A stretch of DNA of 32,000 bases from Mucisphaera calidilacus. Lineage in GTDB: Bacteria > Planctomycetota > Phycisphaerae > Phycisphaerales > Phycisphaeraceae. A model generated the notes under the pieces. It was not told where the DNA came from, searched no databases, and saw only the letters and a program-made list of their open reading frames with translations. Shown one piece after another: positions 1 through 9,611 of this stretch; positions within the stretch are counted from its first letter, which is position 1, and each line of letters opens with the position of its first letter. Position numbers and translations under genes: made by a program. The DNA is taken from positions 660,001 through 692,000 of the forward strand of contig NZ_CP036280.1 of assembly GCF_007748075.1 (NCBI RefSeq). The letters are read 5' to 3'.

Positions 1-323
1 TGGATGTAGGGGTAGATCATCGGGATCTGGATGCCCTGCGTGTTGTAAGAGATCGAGAGGGGGAATTTTGCGCCGCTGGGGAGGGTGGCGTCGAAGGATG
101 AGGGCAGGTAGTCGTCGTTGTCGAAGGCGTAGTACTGGGCGCCGAGTGAGAGTTGGCGCAGGCCCGAGAGGCAGGACATGTCCTGGGCGGCTCTGCGAGC
201 CGCGCCGAGTGCGGGGAGGAGGATGCCGATGAGCAGGGCGATGATGGAGATGACGACGAGCAGTTCGATGAGGGTGAAACCGGAGTTGCTTCGGGGTGTC
301 GGTGGCTGGTTGCGCGTCATCAT
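1..323 (-). CDS. Prepilin-type N-terminal cleavage/methylation domain protein (type II secretion pseudopilin-like, DUF1559-like); C-terminus lies outside the window
   Basis: Absent from the ORF track because it runs off the window edge. Reverse-complement translation from ATG at 323 gives [74 protein letters not shown]... This contains the G|FTLIELLVV prepilin-peptidase motif followed by a hydrophobic helix. Confidence 0.8.
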
Positions 324-434: not shown

Positions 435-1232
435 TTATGCCGCGTGACGGCGGACGAGTCCGGCGATGCCGAGGCCGAGGAGGGCCAGGGCGGAGGGTTC
501 GGGTGTGACGCGGATGTCTTCGAAGCTGACGTTGGCGAACTCGGCGGAGTTGTTGAGGTCGGGTGAGATCTGAGTGTAGAAGCCGACGTTGTACTGGAGG
601 GGTCCGCCCTCGAGGTTGGACCAGTCGAGGAGTCCGCTGGACTCGAGGCCGTTGCCTCGGTCGATGACGTACTCGACCTTTCCGGGGACGCCGAAGCTGC
701 CGCTGGGCGTGTAGGTCATCTGCATGAAGATGGTGTCGCCGAGGGTGTATCCGTCGCCGCCGCCGTTGCTGCCGAAGATGAAGAAGGGTGCGCCGCCGCC
801 GAAGGCGACGATCTCGCCGGCGTCGGAGTTGATGAGGAAGAGTGCGTCGCCGGTGATGCCGCTGTTGACGCGGATGCCGGCTTCCTTGCGGGGTGCGGCG
901 GAGCCGACGTTCATGGTGACGTTGGCGCTGACGGAGAATCCGTCGTTGAGGTTGAGGAGGGTCGCGGTGGCGCCGCCGTCCATGGAGATCATGGCGTCGT
1001 GTCGGTTGGCCCAGTTGCCGCCGATGCCGTCGTCGGCGTAGCCGGACTCGTTGAAGGCGACGATGGCGGGGAAGTTGTCGGTGGTGGTGAGTGTGGTGGT
1101 GCTGAAGTCGTTGAAGAAGCGTTCGCTGATGGCGACGCCGTCGGTGAGTTCAGCGCTGGCGTACAGGGGTGCGGTGATGGCGAGCGCGAGAGTGCATGAT
1201 GCCGCGATACGGGTTGTTGCGAGATTCTCCAT
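435..1232 (-). CDS. Secreted PEP-CTERM sorting-domain protein with an uncharacterised N-terminal domain (paralog 1)
   Basis: From ORF 435..1370. Start trimmed to ATG 1232, which has GAGGAGG 6 nt upstream and opens the signal peptide MENLATTRIAASCTLALAITAPLYASA. The C-terminus VTPEPSALALLGLGIAGLVRRHAA is a PEP motif plus hydrophobic helix plus basic tail. Confidence 0.85.
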   Translation of the reverse strand: MENLATTRIAASCTLALAITAPLYASAELTDGVAISERFFNDFSTTTLTTTDNFPAIVAFNESGYADDGIGGNWANRHDAMISMDGGATATLLNLNDGFSVSANVTMNVGSAAPRKEAGIRVNSGITGDALFLINSDAGEIVAFGGGAPFFIFGSNGGGDGYTLGDTIFMQMTYTPSGSFGVPGKVEYVIDRGNGLESSGLLDWSNLEGGPLQYNVGFYTQISPDLNNSAEFANVSFEDIRVTPEPSALALLGLGIAGLVRRHAA

Positions 1233-1388
1233 GGTGATCCTCCTCTGTGGTTGACAGGACGTGAAACGGGTTTGGCGTCCGGCTCGGCACGCGCGGGCCG
1301 GTCGCGGGTGTTGGGCCGGTGATGTGCCGGCGTTGAGACGTTGGCTGGGGATGTGTGTCGCGTGACACATGGTTGATCCTGCTTGGGG

Positions 1389-2525
1389 TCAGTGTCGGCG
1401 TGTGAGACCGAGTGCGGCGAGGCTCAGCAGCGTGAGGCTCGCGGGTGCGGGGACGGCATTGGTTTCGAAGTTGCTGGCGAGAATCGAGAGGTCGAGCAGG
1501 TCGACGGTGGTGTCGGTGTTGAAGTTGCCGCCGGCCCAGCCGGCGCCGGCGTCGAAGTTGCTGGCGAGTGCTGAGAGGTCGAGTAGGTCGACGCTGCCGT
1601 CGAGTGTGGCGTCGCCGAAGCTGGTGGCGAGGATGTCCTCGACGATGAAGTTGAGGTCGCCGTTGTCGACGCCATTCTGCCCGTCGAGGTCGTAGACGGG
1701 GTCGGTGGATCCGGTTCGGATGGCGGCGGTGAGCAGGTCGATGTCGGTGGCGTCAACGACGCCGTCGTTGTTGAAGTCGCCGGGGATTGTGTTGCCGCCG
1801 TCGGTGATGGTCCAGTTGGCGGTGGTGACCTTTCCGAAGTCTGCGGGGAAGGCGAAGACGTTGGGGGGGAACTGGGCGTAGACGCCGAGGCTGCTGCCGT
1901 CGATGACGCCGTTCTCGAGGTTGTTGATTTCGCGGGGGCCGCTGGAGGCTCCGTCGACGAGGAACTCCATGGTTGCGGGCGTGGAGCCGCCCTGGCCGTC
2001 GCCGGGGGTGTAGATGAGTCGGAGGTTGACGGTCTCGCCGAGGGTGTAGGTTTTTCCGTCGAACTCGACGCCGTCGTCGTCGTCGTTGGTTGAGCTGAGG
2101 TAGGGGAACTGCCCGCCGAAGACGGCGATCTCGCCGTCGTTCTTGATGAGGAACTGTCCGTGCCCGCCGAAGTAGCTCTCGAGGTAGATGCCGGTTTCTT
2201 TGATGGTAGTGTCGGAGCCGATTTCGAGGGTGATGTCGACGCTGAAGTCGAAGGCCTCGTCGTTCTGGAATTCGTAGGGGTTGCTGTCGTCGGCGGAGAG
2301 CCAGAGTGCGTGTCGGTTGGCCCAGTCGGCGCCGCCGTCGGGGACGAAGTCGGTTTCGTCGAGGATGACGCCGGTGAGGTCGTTGTCGGTGACGACGAGG
2401 TTGGTGCCGGGGAAGTCGTTGAAGATTCGCAGCTGGGTTGAGACGCTGTTGATGTCGCTGATGGCGGCCTGTGCGGTGGCGGTGCAACCGATGGCGATGA
2501 GCAGTGACGTGGACGTGTGACGCAT
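1389..2525 (-). CDS. Secreted PEP-CTERM protein: uncharacterised N-terminal domain (paralog 2), four dockerin-type repeats, then the PEP-CTERM anchor
   Basis: From ORF 1389..2606. Start trimmed to ATG 2525, preceded by AGGAGTCAGGAGCC, with signal peptide MRHTSTSLLIAIGCTATAQAA. Dockerin/EF-hand-like segments are DFNNDGVVDATDIDLL, DLDGQNGVDNGDLNFIV, DATLDGSVDLLDLSALA and NFNTDTTVDLLDLSILA. The C-terminus is VPAPASLTLLSLAALGLTRRH. Confidence 0.85.
   Translation of the reverse strand: MRHTSTSLLIAIGCTATAQAAISDINSVSTQLRIFNDFPGTNLVVTDNDLTGVILDETDFVPDGGADWANRHALWLSADDSNPYEFQNDEAFDFSVDITLEIGSDTTIKETGIYLESYFGGHGQFLIKNDGEIAVFGGQFPYLSSTNDDDDGVEFDGKTYTLGETVNLRLIYTPGDGQGGSTPATMEFLVDGASSGPREINNLENGVIDGSSLGVYAQFPPNVFAFPADFGKVTTANWTITDGGNTIPGDFNNDGVVDATDIDLLTAAIRTGSTDPVYDLDGQNGVDNGDLNFIVEDILATSFGDATLDGSVDLLDLSALASNFDAGAGWAGGNFNTDTTVDLLDLSILASNFETNAVPAPASLTLLSLAALGLTRRH
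1464..1785 (-). repeat. Intragenic dockerin-type repeat region (four Ca-binding-like segments)
   Basis: The last two segments are also visible as a DNA direct repeat. gaagttgctggcgag...agaggtcgag.aggtcgacg starts at 1467 and again at 1554, an offset of 87 nt (29 codons). By eye, roughly 40 of the first 49 positions are identical. Confidence 0.7.
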
Positions 2526-2605: not shown

Positions 2606-2619
2606 AGAAAGCGCTTACA
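2606..2619. promoter_or_regulatory. LacI-type operator candidate, site A (AGAAAGCGCTTACA)
   Basis: Pseudo-palindrome centred on CG, about 80 nt upstream of the paralog-2 PEP-CTERM gene start (2525). One of four near-identical copies in this locus. Confidence 0.5.
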
Positions 2620-2680: not shown

Positions 2681-2694
2681 TGGAAACGCTTACA
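2681..2694. promoter_or_regulatory. LacI-type operator candidate, site B (TGGAAACGCTTACA)
   Basis: Fits the TGnAAnCGnTTnCA architecture of LacI/CcpA-family operators. It lies about 155 nt upstream of the gene start at 2525 and downstream of the GH94 stop. Confidence 0.45.
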
Positions 2695-2756
2695 TAGTAC
2701 ATCCCCACGTCGGGGTGTCAAGATTTTTTGTCTTCGAGCTGGAAGATGGTGGCGGT

Positions 2757-5700
2757 TCACAGGATCACCTCCAGGTCGGCCTTGCCTTTCTGGGGCAGGC
2801 TTGAGGCGGGGAGGATGAGTCCGCCCTCGCGGTAGGGGTTGGGTTCGCGTCGGAGTCCGCCAACGGGCTTGCCGTTGATGTTGATACGGGCGGGTCCGTG
2901 GCCGCGGTCGTTGATGTGATAGGTGCATCGGATGGTGGCGCGGCCGCGGTCGAAGGTGTAGGCGAGGCCGTCGAGACGCTGGGGCAGGACGGGGTCGATG
3001 ACGATGGCGTCGGCGGTTTCGCGCCAGCCGAGGAGTGAGCGGATGACGGCGGAGACGTAGATGCCGGGGCCGCTGGAGTAGATGCGCCACCCGCCCTTGA
3101 CGGGGATGTTGCCGGTCATGACGTCTTCGTAGCGGCGTGTGGCCTCGTCGCGGTTGGCGACGTCGGCGTCGGAGCTGCTGAAGTAGGCGTTGGCCTGTCT
3201 GCGTTGGGCGTGGTGGACGTGGTCGTCGAGTTTGACGGGTGTGGCGCAGAGCAGTGCGTCGACGAGGGCGTCGGCTTCGCCGAGGCAGGCGAGTGCTTCG
3301 GCGTAGCGTAGGTGTGCGTGGACGTACATCAGGCCGATTTCGCGGCTGAAGGCGGCGGCGCTCTCGGCGCGTTGGAAGAAGCGTTCGATGCCGCCGAGGT
3401 AGGCGGTGGGGCGGTCCATGAGTCGGGCGCCGTCGGGTGCGAGCAGGTGGCTGCGGATGAGGCGGAGGTGCGTGTGGGCTTCCTGGGCGGTGAAGAGTCC
3501 GCTGAGGATGCCGCGTGTCATGGGCAGGAGTCGGTAGCGGAGTCCGGTGCGGACGTCCTGCGGGTGGAGGATCGGCTCGAAGGCGTTGTTGTTCTCGCGG
3601 TGGTAGCCCATGCCGCAGATGACGCCGTCGGGCATGAGGTGTTTGCGGACGTCGTCGCGGACGTCGGCGGCGCGTTGGCGCAGTCGTCGGCTTGCGGATT
3701 GATCGGCGCCGCAGGCGTGGAGTGCGGTGCCGAGTTCGCGGAGCGTCTGGCTGAGCAGTTCGCAGGTCCAGGTGCTGACGAGTCGTTCGCGGAGGGGTTG
3801 GGAGGTGGGTTGGAGGGCGTCGTTCCAGTCGCCGTGGCCGTAGCGCATAAGGCGTGTGCCGGGGACGAAGGATTTCTCGATGAAGCTGACGGCGTGTAGG
3901 GCGTGTTCGAGGATGGTGGCTCGGGCGTCGGTGGCGTAGTAGGGCAGGGATTCTTTGAGGAGGGAGCGGTCGCCGGTGGCGAGGAGGTAGGTCGCGAGTG
4001 CCTTGAGGGGCCAGACGACGACGTCGCCATGGCTGTCGGCCTGCCGGATGCCGGTGTAGCCGTCGAACATGAACCACTGGGGCCAGTCGCCCGCTTCGTT
4101 TTGCTCGGCGAAGAGCCGGACGAGGATGTCGCGGACGGGCTGAGCTTGTCCCTTGGCGAGGAGGAACTCGACGGGTCCCTGGCAGACGTCGCGGACGCCC
4201 CATGCGCCGCCGTTGAACTGTTCGAGGCCGTGGGGCGAGGCAAGATGGATCAGTGCGTTGTGGCCGAACCAGCGGAGGGTGTCTTCGATGCGGCTGACGT
4301 GGGGGTCGTCGTGTTCGAGTCGGAGTCCTGCGTCGAGTTGGAGCCAGTCGGTCTGGGTGTCTCCGGTGGTGGTGCTGCGGGATGGGGTGTCGGTGTCGTC
4401 GAGTCCGCCTGTCATGCGGAGGGTGAAGCGGTCGACGGGTTTGGTCTGCATGGCGACCCAGGGGTAGCCGCGTGCGCGTCCGTCGGCGAAGAGCAGTTCG
4501 TCGCCGCCGAGGGCTTCGAGTTGTTCGGGATCTTCGGCGGCGAGGGCGAACCAGGCGTCGGGCTCATGCTGTCCGAACTCGCTGGCGGCGCTGGGGCGGA
4601 GGGTGAGTGAGCCTTGGTCGGGATCGATTTCGACGGTTCCGGCCTGTCCGAACTCGACGGCTCCGAGGGCGACGTCGGAGACGAGTATGAGTCGCAGCGG
4701 CGGCCCGTCGATGTCGATGGAGAGGTTGAGTGCGGGCGGTTGTGATTCGGTCCGGCAGTGGATCTTGAGGGTTGTGTCATCGTGTTGATAGAGCCAAGTG
4801 GCGGCGTCGCGGGTGAGGCTCATGGCGGAGGGGACGCCGAGTTGGTGCCAGCCCGATTCAAGCCGGACAAGGATGCGGAGTCCGCCTCGTGAGGCGACGT
4901 CGCTGGGGTTGCGGGTGACGGGGAGGATTTTCTGGAGGACGGTGTTGCCGAGGGTGATCTGGGAGGCGAAGACGCCGTGCATCCAGATGGTCGAGCTGAT
5001 GTCGTTGTCGGCGGGCAGGAGGTTGTCGGCGGCGCGGAGGATGTGGCCGTGGGGGCGTTCGGTGGCGGCTTCCTTGAGGGCGGTGATGACGTGTTCGTCG
5101 GTGCCTCGGAAGAAGGAGAGCGTCTCGCCGTTGGTTTTTTCCTTGTGTCGCCAGGGTGCGGGGAAGTGTTTGCGGAGCGTCTTTTTCTTCATCCGTTCGC
5201 CGGCGAGTCGTGGCAGTCGTTCGAGTCGGTGGCGGTCGACGCGCGCGGTTTCGGCGCGTGCCTGTTCGCGGGCGTGGGCGGCCCAGTCGAAGAGGGGGGT
5301 GAGGGTTTTCAGGTCGTGGTGGTCAGAGGCCTCGGGGTGGTCGGGCTGGAAGACGGCGGCGAAGGTCCAGGCGTGGTGTTCGTTCGCGGTGCAGGTGATG
5401 GGGATGGACTGGAGTGTGGTGGCGGCGAACTCGCCCTGGTGAACGCCGATGCCGATGCGTCGCGAGCGCAGGCGTTCGGGCTGTCCGGTTGAGCGGTGAC
5501 CGGGGCCGAAGAAGCAGACGCCGTCGGTCAGGCATCCTTCGCCGCCGGTGACGCAGGCCTGAGCGAGCCAGGGGAATCGTCCGTCGACGGGGCGGTTCTG
5601 GCGTGTCAGGGCGACGGGGCCCCAGTGCTGTGCCTGTTCGATGCGCTGGTCGAGGTACTGGGCGTTGTAGGCCTCGTTGATCAGGACGCCTGCGCGTGTG

Positions 5701-6080
5701 GAGAGGCCGAGGTCCTGGACGAGGATGGCGTCGAGGGTGGCGGGGTGTTCGGTGTGGACGTCGATGCGCCAGCACCATGCGGGCTGGTTCGGGTGGAGCA
5801 TGAGGGTGCATCGGTAGCGGATGTCATCCCAGGTCCCGGACCATGCTGCGGCGGACTCGCTGAGGCCGAAGGCGCTGTTGGCGTCGGGCGTGTTGAGTCC
5901 GATGGCGTTGACGCTCTGGTCGTAGTGCCGGCGGAGGTAGAGGCGTCCGGTGGTGCCTCGGAGCGGGTCGCCGATGGCGTGGTTGATGAGGATGTTGTCG
6001 TGGGTGATGGCGTGCAGGACGCCGTTGGGGTGAAACGTGACGCAGAGGCCGGCGTCGTTGTTCAGGCGGAGCAGGGTCAT
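2757..6080 (-). CDS. GH94-like glycoside phosphorylase (1107 aa), candidate 1,2-beta-oligoglucan phosphorylase
   Basis: This is the C-terminal 1107 codons of ORF 2757..7127, starting at ATG 6080 (MTLLRLNNDAGLCVTFHPNG...). It contains RYGHGDWNDALQP; from memory, GDWND is the context of the catalytic Asp in GH94-type (alpha/alpha)6 phosphorylases. No signal peptide. The size matches the long GH94 sophoro-oligosaccharide phosphorylases rather than the roughly 800-aa cellobiose phosphorylases. It lies adjacent to the GH144-like gene. Confidence 0.7.
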   Translation of the reverse strand: MTLLRLNNDAGLCVTFHPNGVLHAITHDNILINHAIGDPLRGTTGRLYLRRHYDQSVNAIGLNTPDANSAFGLSESAAAWSGTWDDIRYRCTLMLHPNQPAWCWRIDVHTEHPATLDAILVQDLGLSTRAGVLINEAYNAQYLDQRIEQAQHWGPVALTRQNRPVDGRFPWLAQACVTGGEGCLTDGVCFFGPGHRSTGQPERLRSRRIGIGVHQGEFAATTLQSIPITCTANEHHAWTFAAVFQPDHPEASDHHDLKTLTPLFDWAAHAREQARAETARVDRHRLERLPRLAGERMKKKTLRKHFPAPWRHKEKTNGETLSFFRGTDEHVITALKEAATERPHGHILRAADNLLPADNDISSTIWMHGVFASQITLGNTVLQKILPVTRNPSDVASRGGLRILVRLESGWHQLGVPSAMSLTRDAATWLYQHDDTTLKIHCRTESQPPALNLSIDIDGPPLRLILVSDVALGAVEFGQAGTVEIDPDQGSLTLRPSAASEFGQHEPDAWFALAAEDPEQLEALGGDELLFADGRARGYPWVAMQTKPVDRFTLRMTGGLDDTDTPSRSTTTGDTQTDWLQLDAGLRLEHDDPHVSRIEDTLRWFGHNALIHLASPHGLEQFNGGAWGVRDVCQGPVEFLLAKGQAQPVRDILVRLFAEQNEAGDWPQWFMFDGYTGIRQADSHGDVVVWPLKALATYLLATGDRSLLKESLPYYATDARATILEHALHAVSFIEKSFVPGTRLMRYGHGDWNDALQPTSQPLRERLVSTWTCELLSQTLRELGTALHACGADQSASRRLRQRAADVRDDVRKHLMPDGVICGMGYHRENNNAFEPILHPQDVRTGLRYRLLPMTRGILSGLFTAQEAHTHLRLIRSHLLAPDGARLMDRPTAYLGGIERFFQRAESAAAFSREIGLMYVHAHLRYAEALACLGEADALVDALLCATPVKLDDHVHHAQRRQANAYFSSSDADVANRDEATRRYEDVMTGNIPVKGGWRIYSSGPGIYVSAVIRSLLGWRETADAIVIDPVLPQRLDGLAYTFDRGRATIRCTYHINDRGHGPARININGKPVGGLRREPNPYREGGLILPASSLPQKGKADLEVIL

Positions 6081-6175: not shown

Positions 6176-7525
6176 TCAACGTCGGCTTTCTTTCGGGTTT
6201 CGCTGGTCGGGCGGGAGGGGTTGGTCGGTGAAGATCGAGACGGTGCTGGTGTGCTCGCGTTCGGCGTCGGTGAGGGGACGGAAGCCGGCGAGTTTCATGG
6301 CCCGCTGGACTTCGGGGTTCTTGCCGAAGACTTTCCAGACGAGACCGCTGCGGTGGTTCTCGGCCATGAGCAGGGTGATGCCGACGTCGATGCCGATGAC
6401 CTGCTGGTTGTACCAGTCGGTGTGGGGGTTGAAGGCGTCGACAAAGCCGTAGGTGGTGAAGGACCGTGGGTAGTCGGCCTTCATCTTCATGAGGGCGGGG
6501 ATGGTGGCGTCGGGTGCCATGGGGATGGATCCTGCGGGGGCGCAGGGGACGACGGCACCGTCGATCTCGCCTTGTGCGGGCGGTGCGCCGATGACGCGGT
6601 AGCCGTCCGGCCCGTCGGCGGCGGTGAGTCCCCACATGTCTGGGCCGTACCTGGGGAAGCGGCTGGCGAGGTCGGCGACGAATTGCTGCTGGGCGAGGGT
6701 GGCGAGGACGGAGTTGCTCCAGTAGTCGGCGTAGTCGTCGCGTTGATCGCGGAAGTCGAACCAGGCGTGAGAGAACTGATGGGTAAACAGGGGCGGGCAC
6801 TCGAGGAAGGTTCTGCCGCCGTAGGTGACGAGTCGGTTGCGTTTCCAGGCGTGCCAGGCCTCGGGGGGCAGGGTGTGGGTCTGGGAGCCCATGCCCAGGA
6901 GGTAGAGCATCATCAGTTCGTTGTAGTCGTGCCAGCGGGCCTTGAGGAAGCCGGTTTCGGGTTTCCAGCCCATGGTGAGGGTTTCGCCGCCGTTCATCAT
7001 CCAGACCCAGTCGACGCGGTCGTAGAGTTGTTGGGCGACGGTTTCGAGTTCGGTGCCGGGGAAGGCGGCTTTGACGGTGAGGACGCCATTGATGAGCAGG
7101 GCGGTGTCGATGCTGGAGAGTTCGCACTGCCAGACGCGTTCGCCTGTGTCCATGTCGACGAAGTGGTAGTAGAAGCCGTTGACGTGCTCCATCTCGTCGC
7201 GGAAGAACTTGAGGGTGGCGAGCGAGCGGTCGTAGGCCTGGTCGCGTGAGATCCAGCCGCGTTCCATGCCGATGACGTAGGCGGTGAGTCCGTAGCCAAC
7301 GGAGGCGATGCTGGAGACGTCCATGCCTTGGGAGCCGTCGGCCATGGCGCGGTCGGGGATGAGGCCGTTGTGGGTGTTGGCCTCGCGCCAGAAGAAGTCG
7401 AAGCTGCGTCGGCTGAGTTCGTCGAGGAAGGCGTCCTGCTCGGCGGTAAGGTCGGCGGGCTGGGCGTTGACGACCGGCGCGGTGGCGAGCAGCAGCGTGA
7501 TGATCAGGCAGGCGAAGCGAAACAC
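6176..7525 (-). CDS. Secreted DUF3131/GH144-like protein, candidate endo-beta-1,2-glucanase
   Basis: 449 aa with a GTG start at 7525 and signal peptide MFRFACLIITLLLATAPVVNAQ. The segments FDFFWREANTHNGLIPDR...SSIASVGYGLTAY...NGFYYHFVDMDTGER...SSIDTALLINGVL match my recollection of the DUF3131 / 'glucoamylase family' (GH144) pattern. Confidence 0.7.
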   Translation of the reverse strand: MFRFACLIITLLLATAPVVNAQPADLTAEQDAFLDELSRRSFDFFWREANTHNGLIPDRAMADGSQGMDVSSIASVGYGLTAYVIGMERGWISRDQAYDRSLATLKFFRDEMEHVNGFYYHFVDMDTGERVWQCELSSIDTALLINGVLTVKAAFPGTELETVAQQLYDRVDWVWMMNGGETLTMGWKPETGFLKARWHDYNELMMLYLLGMGSQTHTLPPEAWHAWKRNRLVTYGGRTFLECPPLFTHQFSHAWFDFRDQRDDYADYWSNSVLATLAQQQFVADLASRFPRYGPDMWGLTAADGPDGYRVIGAPPAQGEIDGAVVPCAPAGSIPMAPDATIPALMKMKADYPRSFTTYGFVDAFNPHTDWYNQQVIGIDVGITLLMAENHRSGLVWKVFGKNPEVQRAMKLAGFRPLTDAEREHTSTVSIFTDQPLPPDQRNPKESRR

Positions 7526-7547: not shown

Positions 7548-7561
7548 GGAAACCGCTTACA
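7548..7561. promoter_or_regulatory. LacI-type operator candidate, site C (GGAAACCGCTTACA)
   Basis: Lies 23 nt upstream of the GH144-like start (7525), between that gene and the lacI-family stop (7601). Confidence 0.5.
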
Positions 7562-7600: not shown

Positions 7601-8602
7601 TTAATCCTCTGATCCACAGGTTCGGCGCGGTACGAAGCGTGTGCGGACGATGGGGTCCCAGTCGTCCGGGGGTGACTCGCCACGGATCTGCATGACGGCG
7701 GCCTCGACGGCTTTGGCGCCGAATTCCTGCATGGGTACGTGGACGGTGCTGAGGCCGAGGTGTCGTGCGACCGGCTCGTCGTCGAAGCCGACGATGCGGA
7801 CGTCGTCGGGGACGCGGAGGCCGGCGACGCGTAGGGCGTCCATGGCGCCGAGGGCCATGCGGTCGTTGAGTGCGAAGATGGCCTGGGGCATGCGTTGACC
7901 GGCTTCGAGGCGTGTCCTGACGGCGTCGAAGCCGCTGTCTTCGCGAAAGGTGCCGTGCCAGAGCGAGCTGGCGTGCAGTTTGACGCCTGCTTCGCGTGCG
8001 GCCTGTCGGCAGCCGGAGATGCGCAGGCGTGAGTCGGTGGAGTCCTTGGGTCCGGTGATGATGGCGACGTCGCGCACGCCACAGGGCCCGAGCAGGTGCT
8101 GCATGGCCTGGTAGGCGCCGGTCTTGTTGTCGATGGCGACGACCATGCCCGAGTCGTTGTCGGCGGGTCGGTCCATGAGGACGACGGGGACGCGCGTGGT
8201 GTCGAGGTTGTCGAGCAGTTCGCCGGGGAGCTGGAGGTTCATGACGATGAGTGCGTCGACGCGTCGCTCCATGACGTACTGGCGGACGAGTCGGACGCCG
8301 TCGGTGGTGCTGTGCCCGAAGGCGAAGACGACCTCGTAGTCCTGCTCGCCGGCGTGGGCGCTGATGCCCTTGAGGACTTCGGTGTAGAAGCCGCTGTCGA
8401 GGTCGGGGAAGACGACGCCAAGGGTTTTGGTGGCGTGTCGGGCGAGGGCACGGGCGGCGTAGCTGGGCGCGTAGTTGAGTTCTTTGATGGCTTCGAGGAC
8501 GCGTTGTCGCGTGGGTTCGGAGACGGTGGCGGTGCCGTTGAGCACGCGTGAGACGGTGGCGATGGAGACCCCCGCGCGTTTACCGACCTGCTCCAGACTC
8601 AC
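7601..8602 (-). CDS. LacI-family transcriptional regulator
   Basis: The N-terminal helix-turn-helix SLEQVGKRAGVSIATVSRVLNG...TRQRVLEAIKELNYAPSYAARALA is followed by a periplasmic-binding-protein-like sugar domain (VVFPDLDSGFYTEVLKGI..., VPVVLMDR, FALNDRMALGAM, IVGFDD). GTG start. Confidence 0.9.
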   Translation of the reverse strand: MSLEQVGKRAGVSIATVSRVLNGTATVSEPTRQRVLEAIKELNYAPSYAARALARHATKTLGVVFPDLDSGFYTEVLKGISAHAGEQDYEVVFAFGHSTTDGVRLVRQYVMERRVDALIVMNLQLPGELLDNLDTTRVPVVLMDRPADNDSGMVVAIDNKTGAYQAMQHLLGPCGVRDVAIITGPKDSTDSRLRISGCRQAAREAGVKLHASSLWHGTFREDSGFDAVRTRLEAGQRMPQAIFALNDRMALGAMDALRVAGLRVPDDVRIVGFDDEPVARHLGLSTVHVPMQEFGAKAVEAAVMQIRGESPPDDWDPIVRTRFVPRRTCGSED

Positions 8603-8659: not shown

Positions 8660-8673
8660 CGAAAGCGCTTACA
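8660..8673. promoter_or_regulatory. LacI-type operator candidate, site D (CGAAAGCGCTTACA), in the divergent promoter region
   Basis: Lies between the lacI-family start (8602) and the divergent glycosidase start (8736). A perfect 8-bp palindrome TAACGTTA follows 8 nt downstream at 8681-8688. Confidence 0.5.
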
Positions 8674-8735: not shown

Positions 8736-9611
8736 ATGAAGCGTGACTGCGTTCCACGACTGTCGGCGTTGCGTCCTGTTTATGATCCCTCGCCCTCGGC
8801 GGACGAGCCGTGGTACATCAACGATCACGCCATCATCCGCGACCGGGCTGGCGTGTGGCACATGATCGGGATCACGCATCGTGAGCCGGCCGACCCGTTT
8901 CGGGAGGTTGATTTTGCTCATGCGACGGCGCCGAGCGTGACTGGCCCGTGGCGTCGTGAGGCACACGCGTTGACGGCTGATCCGGAGGCTGGCGAGACGC
9001 ACCTGTGGGCGCCGCACATCATTCATCACGAGGGGCATTACTGGATGTTCTACTGCGCGGGTGGTGAGGATCACACGCGTTATCGTCTGCACCTGGCGAC
9101 TTCGGAAGATCTTTTTTCGTGGGAGCGACACGCCGGCAATCCGCTGATCGTTGATGGGTTTGATGCGCGGGACCCGATGGTCTGCCGGACGGGTGACTGC
9201 TGGACGATGTACTACACGGGCACGGAGCGTCCGGAGGGTGGTCGCCACGCCGTGTTGGCCGCAACTTCGACGGATCTGATTCGGTGGAGCGGGCGGCGGG
9301 TGGTGTTCTGTGATGAGCGGTCGGGGACGTTCGGCGGGCCGTGCGAGTCGCCTTTTGTTCTGGAGCGTGGCGGCTGGTGGTATTTGTTTATCGGCCCGCG
9401 GCAGTTGGGTGAGGCGGGTGAGGATCCGTACAACACCACGGGTGTGTATCGGAGCGGGGATCCGCACGCGTTTGCGGAGGACCAGCGGGTGGCGATGCTG
9501 CCGGCGCACGCGGCGGAGGTCGTGCGTGACGGCGAGCGGTGGTACATCACGCACTGCGGGTGGGGGCAGGGCGGGCTGCACCTTGCGGAGCTGGTCTGGG
9601 GTAAGGGTTAG
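8736..9611 (+). CDS. Cytoplasmic five-bladed beta-propeller glycoside hydrolase (GH43/GH32 superfamily; family not resolved)
   Basis: From ORF 8475..9611, trimmed to ATG 8736 because the upstream part overlaps the lacI-family gene. Motifs are WYINDHAII, HLWAPHIIHHEGHYWMFY, ARDPMV, TSTDLIRWS and PCESPFVLERGGWWYLF. This gives the Asp / (R)DP / Glu-x-Pro triad spacing typical of GH43/32-type propellers. No signal peptide. Confidence 0.6.
   Translation: MKRDCVPRLSALRPVYDPSPSADEPWYINDHAIIRDRAGVWHMIGITHREPADPFREVDFAHATAPSVTGPWRREAHALTADPEAGETHLWAPHIIHHEGHYWMFYCAGGEDHTRYRLHLATSEDLFSWERHAGNPLIVDGFDARDPMVCRTGDCWTMYYTGTERPEGGRHAVLAATSTDLIRWSGRRVVFCDERSGTFGGPCESPFVLERGGWWYLFIGPRQLGEAGEDPYNTTGVYRSGDPHAFAEDQRVAMLPAHAAEVVRDGERWYITHCGWGQGGLHLAELVWGKG

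Follow-up and report, generated by a model that had tools for sequence, protein, structure and literature searches.

A candidate β-1,2-glucan-binding β-jelly-roll domain in tandem paralogous proteins of Mucisphaera calidilacus

Tandem paralogs and their gene neighbourhood

The window analysed here is a 32,000-nucleotide stretch of Mucisphaera calidilacus DNA (NZ_CP036280.1, positions 660,001 to 692,000), and the features for which coordinates are given below are on its (-) strand. Two genes lying in tandem encode proteins with signal-peptide-like N-termini which share a domain that we refer to as X. The paralog 1 gene (435..1232), an open reading frame with a GAGGAGG ribosome-binding site upstream of its ATG, encodes a 265 aa protein (a 100% match to P0001) made up of a signal peptide, the X domain (504..1145, residues 30-243) and a PEP-CTERM anchor. 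The paralog 2 gene (1389..2525), with CAGGAG..AGGAG upstream of its ATG, encodes 378 aa comprising a signal peptide, a divergent X domain (1803..2453, residues 25-241; 227 bits to the X profile), dockerin-like repeats and a degenerate PEP-CTERM, an architecture which is kept in 10 planctomycete loci. In a BLASTP alignment spanning 229 aa the two proteins were 34% identical, with 50% positives (E 1e-29), a similarity which, judged from the alignment, is far above chance and which bears out the proposal of an earlier note on this DNA that the two are tandem paralogs with a common secreted domain, here ~215 aa in length. The nine motif pairs listed in that note were all found in the translations and in the order claimed, namely RFFNDF/RIFNDF, TDN, NWANRH/DWANRH, KEAGI/KETGI, GEIVAFGG/GEIAVFGG, YTLGDT/YTLGET, TYTP/IYTP, NLEGG/NLENG and GFYTQ/GVYAQ.

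Both proteins had been described as PEP-CTERM proteins. This held for paralog 1, where the sorting signal at 447..506 (residues 243-262: TPEP, hydrophobic helix, RRH) scored above the cut-off with both PF07589 (26.3 bits, cut-off 20.7) and TIGR02595 (18.7 bits, cut-off 16). In paralog 2 the C-terminus (1395..1457; VPAPASLTLLSLAALGLTRRH) is a degenerate version which reached 14.4 bits with PF07589, below the same cut-off. Here VPAP is found instead of VPEP, with the helix and RRH tail retained, and orthologs of paralog 2 have a canonical VPEP at the aligned position. No exosortase gene was observed among the window ORFs scanned. Paralog 2 also contains ~110 aa of dockerin-like repeats (1461..1784) which were absent from the earlier note; four calcium-loop repeats of the D/N-x-D/N-x-D-G-x-V-D type are present in the sequence. 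The region scored 22.7 bits with PF00404 against a cut-off of 22.9, and this cut-off was passed by related proteins (23.2 bits for a 765-aa protein of locus L001, 26.9 bits for P0212).

The placement of the pair directly downstream of GH94 and GH144 genes was also correct. A gene of the 1,2-β-oligoglucan phosphorylase type (SOGP, GH94) at 2757..6080, for which the start codon was located, encodes 1107 aa with SOGP_N (201 bits), SOGP_2nd (128 bits), Glyco_hydro_94 and SOGP_4th domains, and the gene at 6176..7525 encodes a GH144-type homolog of endo-β-1,2-glucanases (PF10091, 232 bits) which has a signal peptide (N-terminus VFRFACLIITLLLATAPVVNA) and in which a domain scan gave no dockerin match. 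A LacI-family regulator is encoded at 7601..8602 (LacI helix-turn-helix, 63 bits; Peripla_BP_3, 100 bits). A gene for a prepilin-type N-methyl (DUF1559-like) protein lies directly downstream of paralog 1 and runs off the window, its 5' part occupying 1..323; the motif is seen in the translation and the L001 ortholog matches PF07963.

Putative operators and promoter

A LacI-type operator, TGTAAGCGnTTnC, of the palindromic form TG-N-AA-N-CG-N-TT-N-CA was found four times in the window compared with 0.83 matches expected, and all four are intergenic. One lies before lacI (8661..8673, TGTAAGCGCTTTC) in a region common to a divergent GH43/32-like gene, one before GH144 (7549..7561, TGTAAGCGGTTTC) and two before paralog 2, where two operator-like sites had indeed been reported. 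Of this pair, O1 (2682..2694, TGTAAGCGTTTCC) abuts the -10 hexamer of a σ70-like promoter for the paralog 2/paralog 1 operon (2694..2721; TTGACA, 16 nt spacer, TACTAT), and O2 (2607..2619, TGTAAGCGCTTTC) is 75 bp downstream of O1. The promoter agrees at 10/12 positions and is the sole promoter-like site in 1-2900 (shuffles expect 0.2). The same two-operator layout is present in the ortholog locus of another Mucisphaera sp. (L011), and three distant loci (L002, L023, L034) have the operator palindrome immediately upstream of X. The palindromes in the promoters and the lacI gene in the locus support a LacI-family regulon with putative operators, and the operator common to lacI, GH144 and paralog 2 likewise supports co-regulation of X with the glycoside hydrolase.

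Sequence family and conserved residues

The X family is strongly conserved; 208 relatives were found, and the family amounts to 388 clusters at 50% identity. When both paralogs were searched against Pfam and NCBIfam only the PEP-CTERM and dockerin regions were matched and X was without a match, and in a Pfam search of 25 family members at E<=10 X again had no match of any kind. Neither a single-sequence query nor, at E<=10, a 121-sequence X profile matched any PDB sequence. The description of the domain as uncharacterised is in keeping with these searches, and as far as could be tested X is absent from CAZy, Pfam and NCBIfam. A canonical PEP-CTERM is also found on most members of the family. 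In others its place is taken by a type IX secretion tail, or by a dockerin that follows a fused GH144, so that one anchor can be exchanged for another and X is not defined by it.

Residues conserved in X, in paralog 1 numbering, are R38, N41, D42, N76, H78, E117, G119, E140, Y219 and Q221. Those which are near-universal are mostly polar or charged (N76, H78, E117, E140, R38, D42, Y219 and Q221), the two glutamates being invariant, and beside them there are conserved aromatic positions at F/W/Y74, Y162 and Y219. From strand parity, E117/G119/R121 and G217/Y219/Q221 appear to alternate with hydrophobic residues. Such a pattern of residues is as compatible with a catalytic or metal site as with one for sugar. 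Between loci L006 and L008 the identity was 59% for X and 28% for GH144, and between L001 and L006 it was 48% for X and 42% for GH144. In the same genome pairs X is conserved as much as or more than the neighbouring GH144, which is unusual for a CBM.

Predicted fold of X

AlphaFold models of X were confident and all-β, with pLDDT values of 91.6 and 95.4, in agreement with the β-sandwich suggested from the sequence, and the model of paralog 1 X (pLDDT 95.4, pTM 0.91) contained 14 strands. The Foldseek comparison which the earlier note had proposed was run against the PDB, and 82 chains matched X at E<=1e-3. Among the matches listed (50 of the 82 chains) almost all were jelly-rolls of the ConA-like class, the highest TM being 0.58. 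The top neighbours among those listed were PL7, legume lectins, the Emp47p carbohydrate-recognition domain and CBM66, all of them jelly-rolls which bind or act on carbohydrates. Had X been matched with confidence to a family unrelated to carbohydrates, this would have counted against a glycan role, and no such match arose. The X model has the superposable two-sheet antiparallel β-jelly-roll of ~200 aa which characterizes the Concanavalin A-like lectin/glucanase fold. PL7 lyases and legume/L-type lectins are the nearest solved folds, a relation at the level of fold only (TM 0.5-0.58, ~10% identity). On the basis of these models, X is predicted to be a new family within the concanavalin-like β-jelly-roll superfamily.

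Linkage of X to β-1,2-glucan enzymes

To describe the neighbourhood of X in other genomes we used 31 species-representative loci from Planctomycetota, Verrucomicrobiota and Armatimonadota. A clear GH144 or GH144-like gene was present within 10 kb of X in 24 of these, with 4 further weak cases, and SOGP/GH94 or GH1 was also found in many. ORFs in L027, L035 and L038 which gave 29-36 bits with our own GH144 HMM matched only TSP_3 in Pfam and were counted as weak. No glycoside hydrolase was found near X in L013, L021 and L022 (3/31), nor in L004 and L009. In 19/31 loci X has an N-methyl gene no more than 10 kb away, and in ~11 the two are directly adjacent.

In Candidatus Eisenbacteria all three of the loci examined had a TonB-dependent receptor gene ... 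GH144, then a double-X protein; GH94 follows GH144 in two of the three. Type IX secretion tails are present on both GH144 and X in these loci, where neither a dockerin nor an N-methyl partner was seen. A protein from an Armatimonadota MAG (P0212, locus L039) is a direct X-GH144-dockerin fusion in which the conserved X residues are kept. The linkage of X with GH144 spans four phyla, across differing gene orders and anchoring systems, and the co-localisation with glycoside hydrolases on which the glycan hypothesis had been made to depend is thus observed elsewhere (24/31 loci, 3/3 in Eisenbacteria and one fusion). An archaeal tblastn match (L042, E 6e-4) had no match to the X profile and was judged to be spurious.

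Proposed role of X

Those points of the earlier note's interpretation which computation could address were all borne out. Since X is almost always found beside, and once fused to, β-1,2-glucan enzymes, it is most likely the part of the pathway which captures the glucan, and the family is most likely dedicated to β-1,2-glucan utilisation, with β-1,2-glucan as the presumed ligand. In CAZy and in PULs, CBMs and surface glycan-binding proteins usually take the form of a β-sandwich N-terminal to a glycoside hydrolase or of several copies in tandem on a protein sorted to the surface, and by this analogy the fusion and tandem-X architectures would count for a binding role. X resembles a CBM in being a discrete fold found either joined to carbohydrate-active enzymes or encoded alongside them (the P0212 fusion and the 24/31 and 3/3 loci). 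The common operator and the aromatic positions beside the invariant polar residues likewise speak for a binding role. Points against binding are the conservation, equal to or above that of GH144, the polar nature of the invariant residues, the enzyme (PL7) neighbours and the five loci where no glycoside hydrolase was found. On balance we lean towards X being a candidate non-catalytic, surface-anchored β-1,2-glucan-binding module of lectin/CBM-like type and founding a new family, a reading which draws on the modelled fold and which we consider somewhat favoured.

As a binding module at the cell surface, X would capture β-1,2-glucan or sopho-oligosaccharides, being held on the envelope by the PEP-CTERM anchor of paralog 1 and likewise by paralog 2, which would add the dockerin-like region as a spacer. 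The secreted GH144 endo-glucanase would next cleave this glucan, and the oligosaccharides would be taken up, possibly aided by the adjacent prepilin-like N-methyl protein, before phosphorolysis by the cytoplasmic GH94 enzyme. Via the common operator the LacI-family repressor would shut lacI, GH144-GH94 and the paralog 2/paralog 1 operon until the inducer, presumably a sopho-oligosaccharide, becomes available.

The main rival to a binding module is a new enzyme with a β-jelly-roll fold, whose substrate would be β-1,2-glucan or its substituents and which could be a hydrolase, a transglycosylase, a cyclic-glucan opener or a remover of succinyl or phosphoglycerol groups, with the invariant E117/E140 pair or the H78/Y219/Q221 set located in a PL7-like cleft; we regard it as possible, though unlikely. 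The alginate and β-glucuronan lyases of PL7 (1uai, 2cws, 2zaa, 7nde) are, like X, single-domain ConA-like β-jelly-rolls of ~215-230 aa and ranked best in Foldseek (E 2e-5, TM 0.50-0.58; TMq 0.58 for 1uai and 0.53 for 2cws). PL7 signatures are Q-I/V-H, R-x-E-x-R and Y-F-K-A-G-x-Y-x-Q, and the strand motifs N-x-H, E-x-G-x-R and G-x-Y-x-Q of X look similar, the last being near the C-terminus in both. The near-universal residues of X are two glutamates together with N, H, R, Y and Q, the domain is as strongly conserved as the adjacent catalytic GH144, and the genomic linkage would suit an enzyme equally well. However, the TM values are only 0.5-0.58 at ~11% identity, HMM searches at E<=10 connected X neither with PL7 nor with any GH family of the jelly-roll type, and the motifs are not collinear, with N-x-H preceding E-x-G-x-R in X. 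PL7 substrates are uronic-acid polymers whereas X loci encode enzymes for a neutral glucose polymer (judged from the genomic partners GH144, SOGP/GH94 and GH1), and β-elimination of the PL7 type is inapplicable because β-1,2-glucan has no uronic acid. Membership of PL7 was rejected on these grounds of HMM, motif order and substrate, and the analogy of the cleft was kept as a lead. In addition, the loci already hold an endo-acting GH144 and an exo-acting or phosphorolytic GH94 or GH1, and the tandem X-X arrangement on a protein sorted to the surface, like the N-terminal fusion to a GH, is more typical of binding modules than of enzymes.

Two further readings leave the glycan out. X may be a protein-protein module, either a cohesin-like receptor for dockerin-like domains or a partner of the N-methyl pseudopilin, which organises surface enzymes without touching the glycan. 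The dockerin-like domains carried by paralog 2, the GH144-like 765-aa protein and the X-GH144 fusion, the frequent N-methyl neighbour, and high sequence conservation, which would suit a protein interface, are all consistent with this; the window GH144 nevertheless has no dockerin match, the fold neighbours are lectins and lyases and not cohesins, and X is retained in the Eisenbacteria loci where neither partner was seen. We rank the cohesin-like reading as improbable because the Eisenbacteria loci show no dockerins, and hold the protein-protein module as a whole to be improbable too. That X is a generic surface protein or adhesin, with no functional meaning in its place beside β-1,2-glucan genes, we consider very improbable indeed. 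PEP-CTERM proteins are often structural, and the loci with no nearby glycoside hydrolase (L004, L009, L013, L021, L022) would be expected from it, but the linkage persists in four phyla despite varied gene order and anchoring, accompanied by the direct fusion and the common operator. As a rough estimate, with ten GH144-clan genes per 5-Mb genome one would lie within ±10 kb of a random gene in ~4% of cases.

Comparison with known binding systems

Legume and L-type lectins (the Emp47p carbohydrate-recognition domain, 2a71, and the Vatairea and Dolichos seed lectins) share the fold class of X (TM 0.42-0.52) and are non-catalytic, with a sugar site of conserved Asp, Glu, Asn and His plus an aromatic residue, often with Ca2+ or Mn2+. 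They differ in being eukaryotic and in superposing with an rmsd of 8-10 Å with no sequence or HMM relation (PF00139 and PF03388 unmatched), and we know of no legume or L-type lectin that is specific for β-1,2-glucan. The role proposed for X equals that of the Sus-like surface glycan-binding proteins and CBMs of Bacteroidota (CBM66, 4b1m), where a β-sandwich is encoded and co-regulated with an endo-glycanase and uptake functions and, as with X, stands alone, in tandem or fused to a glycoside hydrolase. The anchors of X are PEP-CTERM or a type IX secretion tail, in contrast to the lipid anchor of Sus-like binding proteins, and in PVC phyla its partner is an N-methyl prepilin-like protein instead of SusC/D.

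N-methyl/DUF1559 proteins of PVC bacteria are hugely expanded. A literature search gave nothing relevant on the function of DUF1559, nor on polysaccharide loci of PVC bacteria that contain PEP-CTERM or prepilin proteins. As a speculative and rather doubtful extension of the binding role, X might be the substrate-recognition head of a PVC-specific apparatus for glycan capture and uptake, with the role that Sus-like systems have in Bacteroidota, paired with the N-methyl (DUF1559-like) protein in Planctomycetota and Verrucomicrobiota and with a TonB-dependent receptor in that place in Candidatus Eisenbacteria. If true, polysaccharide import in PVC bacteria would have the N-methyl/DUF1559 proteins as its substrate-specific components, and to these X would pass β-1,2-glucan chains.

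β-1,2-Glucans are bacterial polymers of symbiosis, virulence and osmoregulation, and enzymes for their degradation have been known only since 2014-2017. No lectin or CBM for β-1,2-glucan was found in a full-text literature search. [quoted passage not shown] The GH families which degrade β-1,2-glucan were still growing in 2025 (PMC12102758), and X is a candidate founder of a new family, whether of CBMs or of enzymes. It might also serve as a detection or affinity reagent for β-1,2-glucans, and in PVC, Armatimonadota and Eisenbacteria genomes, where SusC/D markers are inapplicable, it would mark loci for the use of β-1,2-glucan. Among PEP-CTERM/exosortase cargo (PF07589, TIGR02595), paralog 1 has the canonical PEP motif, helix and basic tail with X as a new cargo domain, and the locus offers a substrate-defined setting for the function of PEP-CTERM lectin-like and N-methyl/DUF1559 proteins in Planctomycetota.

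The X domain and the two paralogs

The genes for paralog 1 (435..1232, 265 aa) and paralog 2 (1389..2525, 378 aa) both lie on the minus strand with good ribosome-binding sites, and BLASTP aligned their products over 229 aa with 34% of residues identical and 50% positive (E 1e-29). This bears out the earlier note's description of tandem paralogs with a common domain of about 200 aa, and the nine motif pairs which it listed were all found in both translations in identical order. In paralog 1 the signal peptide is followed by the shared domain X (~215 aa) and by a PEP-CTERM segment which scores over both curated thresholds (Pfam, NCBIfam). In paralog 2, whose X is more divergent, the signal peptide and X precede dockerin-like calcium-loop repeats of ~110 aa (22.7 bits; Pfam cut-off 22.9), and the C-terminus, VPAP...RRH, is degenerate. 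The earlier labelling of both as PEP-CTERM proteins holds for paralog 1, and the paralog 2 terminus, at 14.4 bits, falls under the Pfam cut-off; the earlier description did not include the dockerin-like part. The tandem of the two gene types was found again in 10 further planctomycete loci, in which the X, dockerin-like repeat and PEP-CTERM arrangement of paralog 2 is kept. The paralog 2 signal peptide also contains a weak lipobox-like motif, LIAIGC (residues 1-14; 2484-2525, minus strand), and lipidation at Cys14 could be an alternative to cleavage after AQA; Cys14 is not conserved among orthologs.

The domain had been called uncharacterized, and this stands: X of either paralog had no match in Pfam or NCBIfam, 25 family members scanned against Pfam at E<=10 gave none, and neither a single sequence nor a 121-sequence profile matched the sequence of any PDB chain (E<=10). 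A word-indexed search returned 208 relatives from Mucisphaera, Phycisphaeraceae, Pirellulales and a Fimbriimonadaceae, mostly of 250-280 aa and mostly annotated as "hypothetical" or "PEP-CTERM protein". Exhaustive profile searching gave 388, 259 and 94 clusters at 50% identity (E<=1e-3, 1e-10 and 1e-30, respectively), and a scan of species-representative genomes yielded 31 genuine X loci, all from MAGs, spread over Planctomycetota, Verrucomicrobiota and Armatimonadota. The closest, from a Mucisphaera sp. MAG, is 76% identical, which makes Phycisphaeraceae the probable source of the window. Over 251 domain copies (paralog 1 numbering) G119 is conserved in 100%, N76, E117 and E140 in 99%, F144 and G165 in 98%, Y162 in 96%, H78 in 90%, R38 in 88%, D42 in 87%, Y219 in 83% and Q221 in 82%. 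One member recovered by the profile search, P0237 (650 aa), has X fused to three CHRD domains.

Predicted fold of X

AlphaFold2, run on the full-length protein with an alignment of 121 sequences, gave a pLDDT of 91.6, and the X domain alone gave a pLDDT of 95.4 and pTM of 0.91; both models are all-β with 14 strands. Among the matches listed by Foldseek against PDB there were fold-level matches only, to the concanavalin-like jelly-roll class, so the β-sandwich guessed from composition was correct. The best were PL7 alginate/glucuronan lyases (E about 2e-5, about 11% identity; TM 0.58/0.56 for 1uai and 0.53/0.50 for 2cws), followed by legume lectins, the Emp47p carbohydrate-recognition domain, botulinum-toxin binding domains, the β-sandwich found in GH43 enzymes and CBM66. 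No close structural relative was present among these PDB matches, and neither Foldseek nor the HMM libraries gave a confident match to a non-carbohydrate family. Membership of a Pfam or NCBIfam family, of the legume or L-type lectins and of PL7 were each considered and rejected; X is a new family inside the concanavalin-like fold.

The locus and its probable regulation

The minus-strand gene order is lacI (7601-8602), GH144/PF10091 with a signal peptide (6176-7525), SOGP-type GH94 (2757-6080), paralog 2, paralog 1 and a prepilin-type N-methyl (DUF1559-like) gene (1-323) which runs off the window, confirming that the paralogs lie directly downstream of GH144/GH94. The remaining genes of the window are housekeeping, sulfate-assimilation and nucleotide-sugar/glycosyltransferase genes.

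Searching the 32 kb for TGTAAGCGYTTYC with <=2 mismatches gave four sites (0.83 expected), all intergenic and on the minus strand: before lacI (8661-8673), before GH144 (7549-7561) and, as had been noted earlier, twice before paralog 2 (O1, 2682-2694; O2, 2607-2619, 75 bp downstream of O1). The only σ70-like promoter in 1-2900 (TTGACA, 16-nt spacer, TACTAT; 2721-2694, minus strand) ends exactly where O1 starts. The same four-site layout is seen in the Mucisphaera sp. ortholog locus, and a fuller palindrome, TGnAAGCGCTTnCA, immediately precedes X in three distant loci (L002, L023, L034). From this arrangement we infer that paralog 2 and paralog 1 form one operon, which the locus LacI would repress together with GH144-GH94; the N-methyl gene is probably part of the same operon.

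A GH43/GH32-like β-propeller gene (~8736-9611, plus strand; PF04616, 52 bits) diverges from lacI and may join the regulon, because the intergenic region with the operator at 8661-8673 is common to both. The ortholog locus of Mucisphaera sp. does not have this gene at the corresponding position. GC skew of the plus strand was positive in every 1-kb window of 1-32000 (+0.07 to +0.32; genome 65% GC) and strongest at minus-strand gene stretches; the coding strands are therefore markedly C-rich.

Linkage of X to GH144 in other genomes

HMMs built from the locus proteins were run on ten homolog look-ups and the 31 species-representative loci. Co-localization with glycoside hydrolases, put forward earlier as a check, was observed: 24/31 loci had a strong match to GH144 or to a GH144-like 726-765-aa family within 10 kb. 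Four further loci had weak GH144-like similarity alone, three of which were unconfirmed by Pfam yet adjoin GH1, and in the last three no GH144 or GH144-like gene was found within 10 kb (two are short contigs). The X loci also repeatedly encode LacI proteins and SOGP/GH94 or GH1 enzymes; an association of GH1 with β-1,2-glucan is described in a recent report (PMC12369401).

In the Armatimonadota protein P0212 (ORF L039 9932-12193) X is fused directly to GH144 and a dockerin, with the conserved X residues retained and a LacI gene preceding. A distant Candidatus Eisenbacteria branch has two X copies with an Ig-like domain and a type IX secretion tail, encoded at the end of a GH144-containing array in 3/3 loci looked up. 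These arrays encode ~1100-aa and ~340-aa proteins and then GH144 (3/3), begin with a TonB-dependent receptor in L043 and L045, and in L043 and L044 continue from GH144 through GH94 to the double-X gene. The P0212 fusion and the Eisenbacteria loci are independent of each other as support for the X-GH144 association, which survives a change of phylum, gene order and anchoring system.

L043 (1-9752), L044 and L045 resemble PULs without a recognisable SusD. Their ~1100-aa protein is unannotated, the ~340-aa protein is weakly similar to PorV, the GH94 of L043 and L044 is large, and the GH144 of L043 carries a type IX secretion tail. Exceptions to linkage include L022 (9785-12073), with two or three tandem X-type ORFs and no GH144 within 10 kb, and the Fimbriimonadaceae-type L004 and L013, and L009, each a lone X amid housekeeping genes. 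L029 (CAYHFK010000064.1), labelled "uncultured Bifidobacterium sp.", holds a verrucomicrobial-type X, GH144 and N-methyl locus and is probably mis-binned.

Candidate role of X

X is thereby shown to be a functional part of β-1,2-glucan utilization; as to its specific role there, we lean towards a non-catalytic, surface-anchored lectin/CBM-like module which binds β-1,2-glucan. Its stand-alone anchored, tandem surface-sorted and N-terminal GH-fusion forms are the architectures in which CBMs and surface glycan-binding proteins occur, its fold is a lectin fold, and the loci encode endo- and exo-acting/phosphorolytic enzymes with no other candidate binder. X at the cell surface would capture glucan for the secreted GH144, with uptake and cytoplasmic phosphorolysis to follow. 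The main rival, a new family of jelly-roll enzymes, is less likely and we give it limited credence. The near-universal X residues are polar or charged, including two invariant glutamates, X is at least as conserved as the neighbouring GH144 between the same genomes, and the PL7 lyases, its best structural neighbours, have loosely similar strand motifs; however, these motifs are not collinear with those of X, no HMM link joins the two, and a neutral glucan is not open to β-elimination. The Eisenbacteria loci and the X-GH144 fusion make a protein-protein scaffold improbable and a generic adhesin more improbable still.

As a binding module X would be functionally similar to the surface glycan-binding proteins and CBMs of polysaccharide-utilization loci. 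PVC bacteria, to our knowledge, are without SusC/D, and the X locus offers a substrate-defined entry to their polysaccharide capture. A Listeria ABC-transporter solute-binding protein, unrelated to X, is the one binder of β-1,2-glucooligosaccharides which the consulted papers mention (PMC8861115); in full-text literature searches neither a lectin or CBM for β-1,2-glucan nor any account of the X family came up. X is a well-supported candidate, open to direct testing, for the first binding module specific to β-1,2-glucan; less probably it founds a new enzyme family.

Other recurring neighbours

In 19/31 loci X has a prepilin-type N-methyl gene within 10 kb, and in about 11 the two genes are immediate neighbours (L001 10906-11718; adjoining X in L015, L016, L017, L019, L033, L034, L035, L037 and L038); in the Eisenbacteria loci the corresponding position is taken by the TonB-dependent receptor. 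Orthology does not extend to all of the N-methyl proteins: some are short (270-314 aa), others are of an SBP_bac_10 type (360-400 aa). The 726-765-aa family (L001 11761-14055, an orthologous locus in which the gene sits just past the left end of the window; L006 4621-6801; also L012, L014 and L033) has a dockerin-like C-terminus and no Pfam GH domain. It weakly resembles GH144 (25% over 163 aa; 40-50 bits to our own GH144 HMM) and may belong to the GH144 clan. A conserved ~1050-1100-aa protein (L001 14108-17260, L002 4812-8126, L018 14877-18101; the L001 and L002 copies are 38% identical over 1066 aa) carries an F5/8 type C domain and a weak (α/α)6 "Bac_rhamnosid6H" signal.
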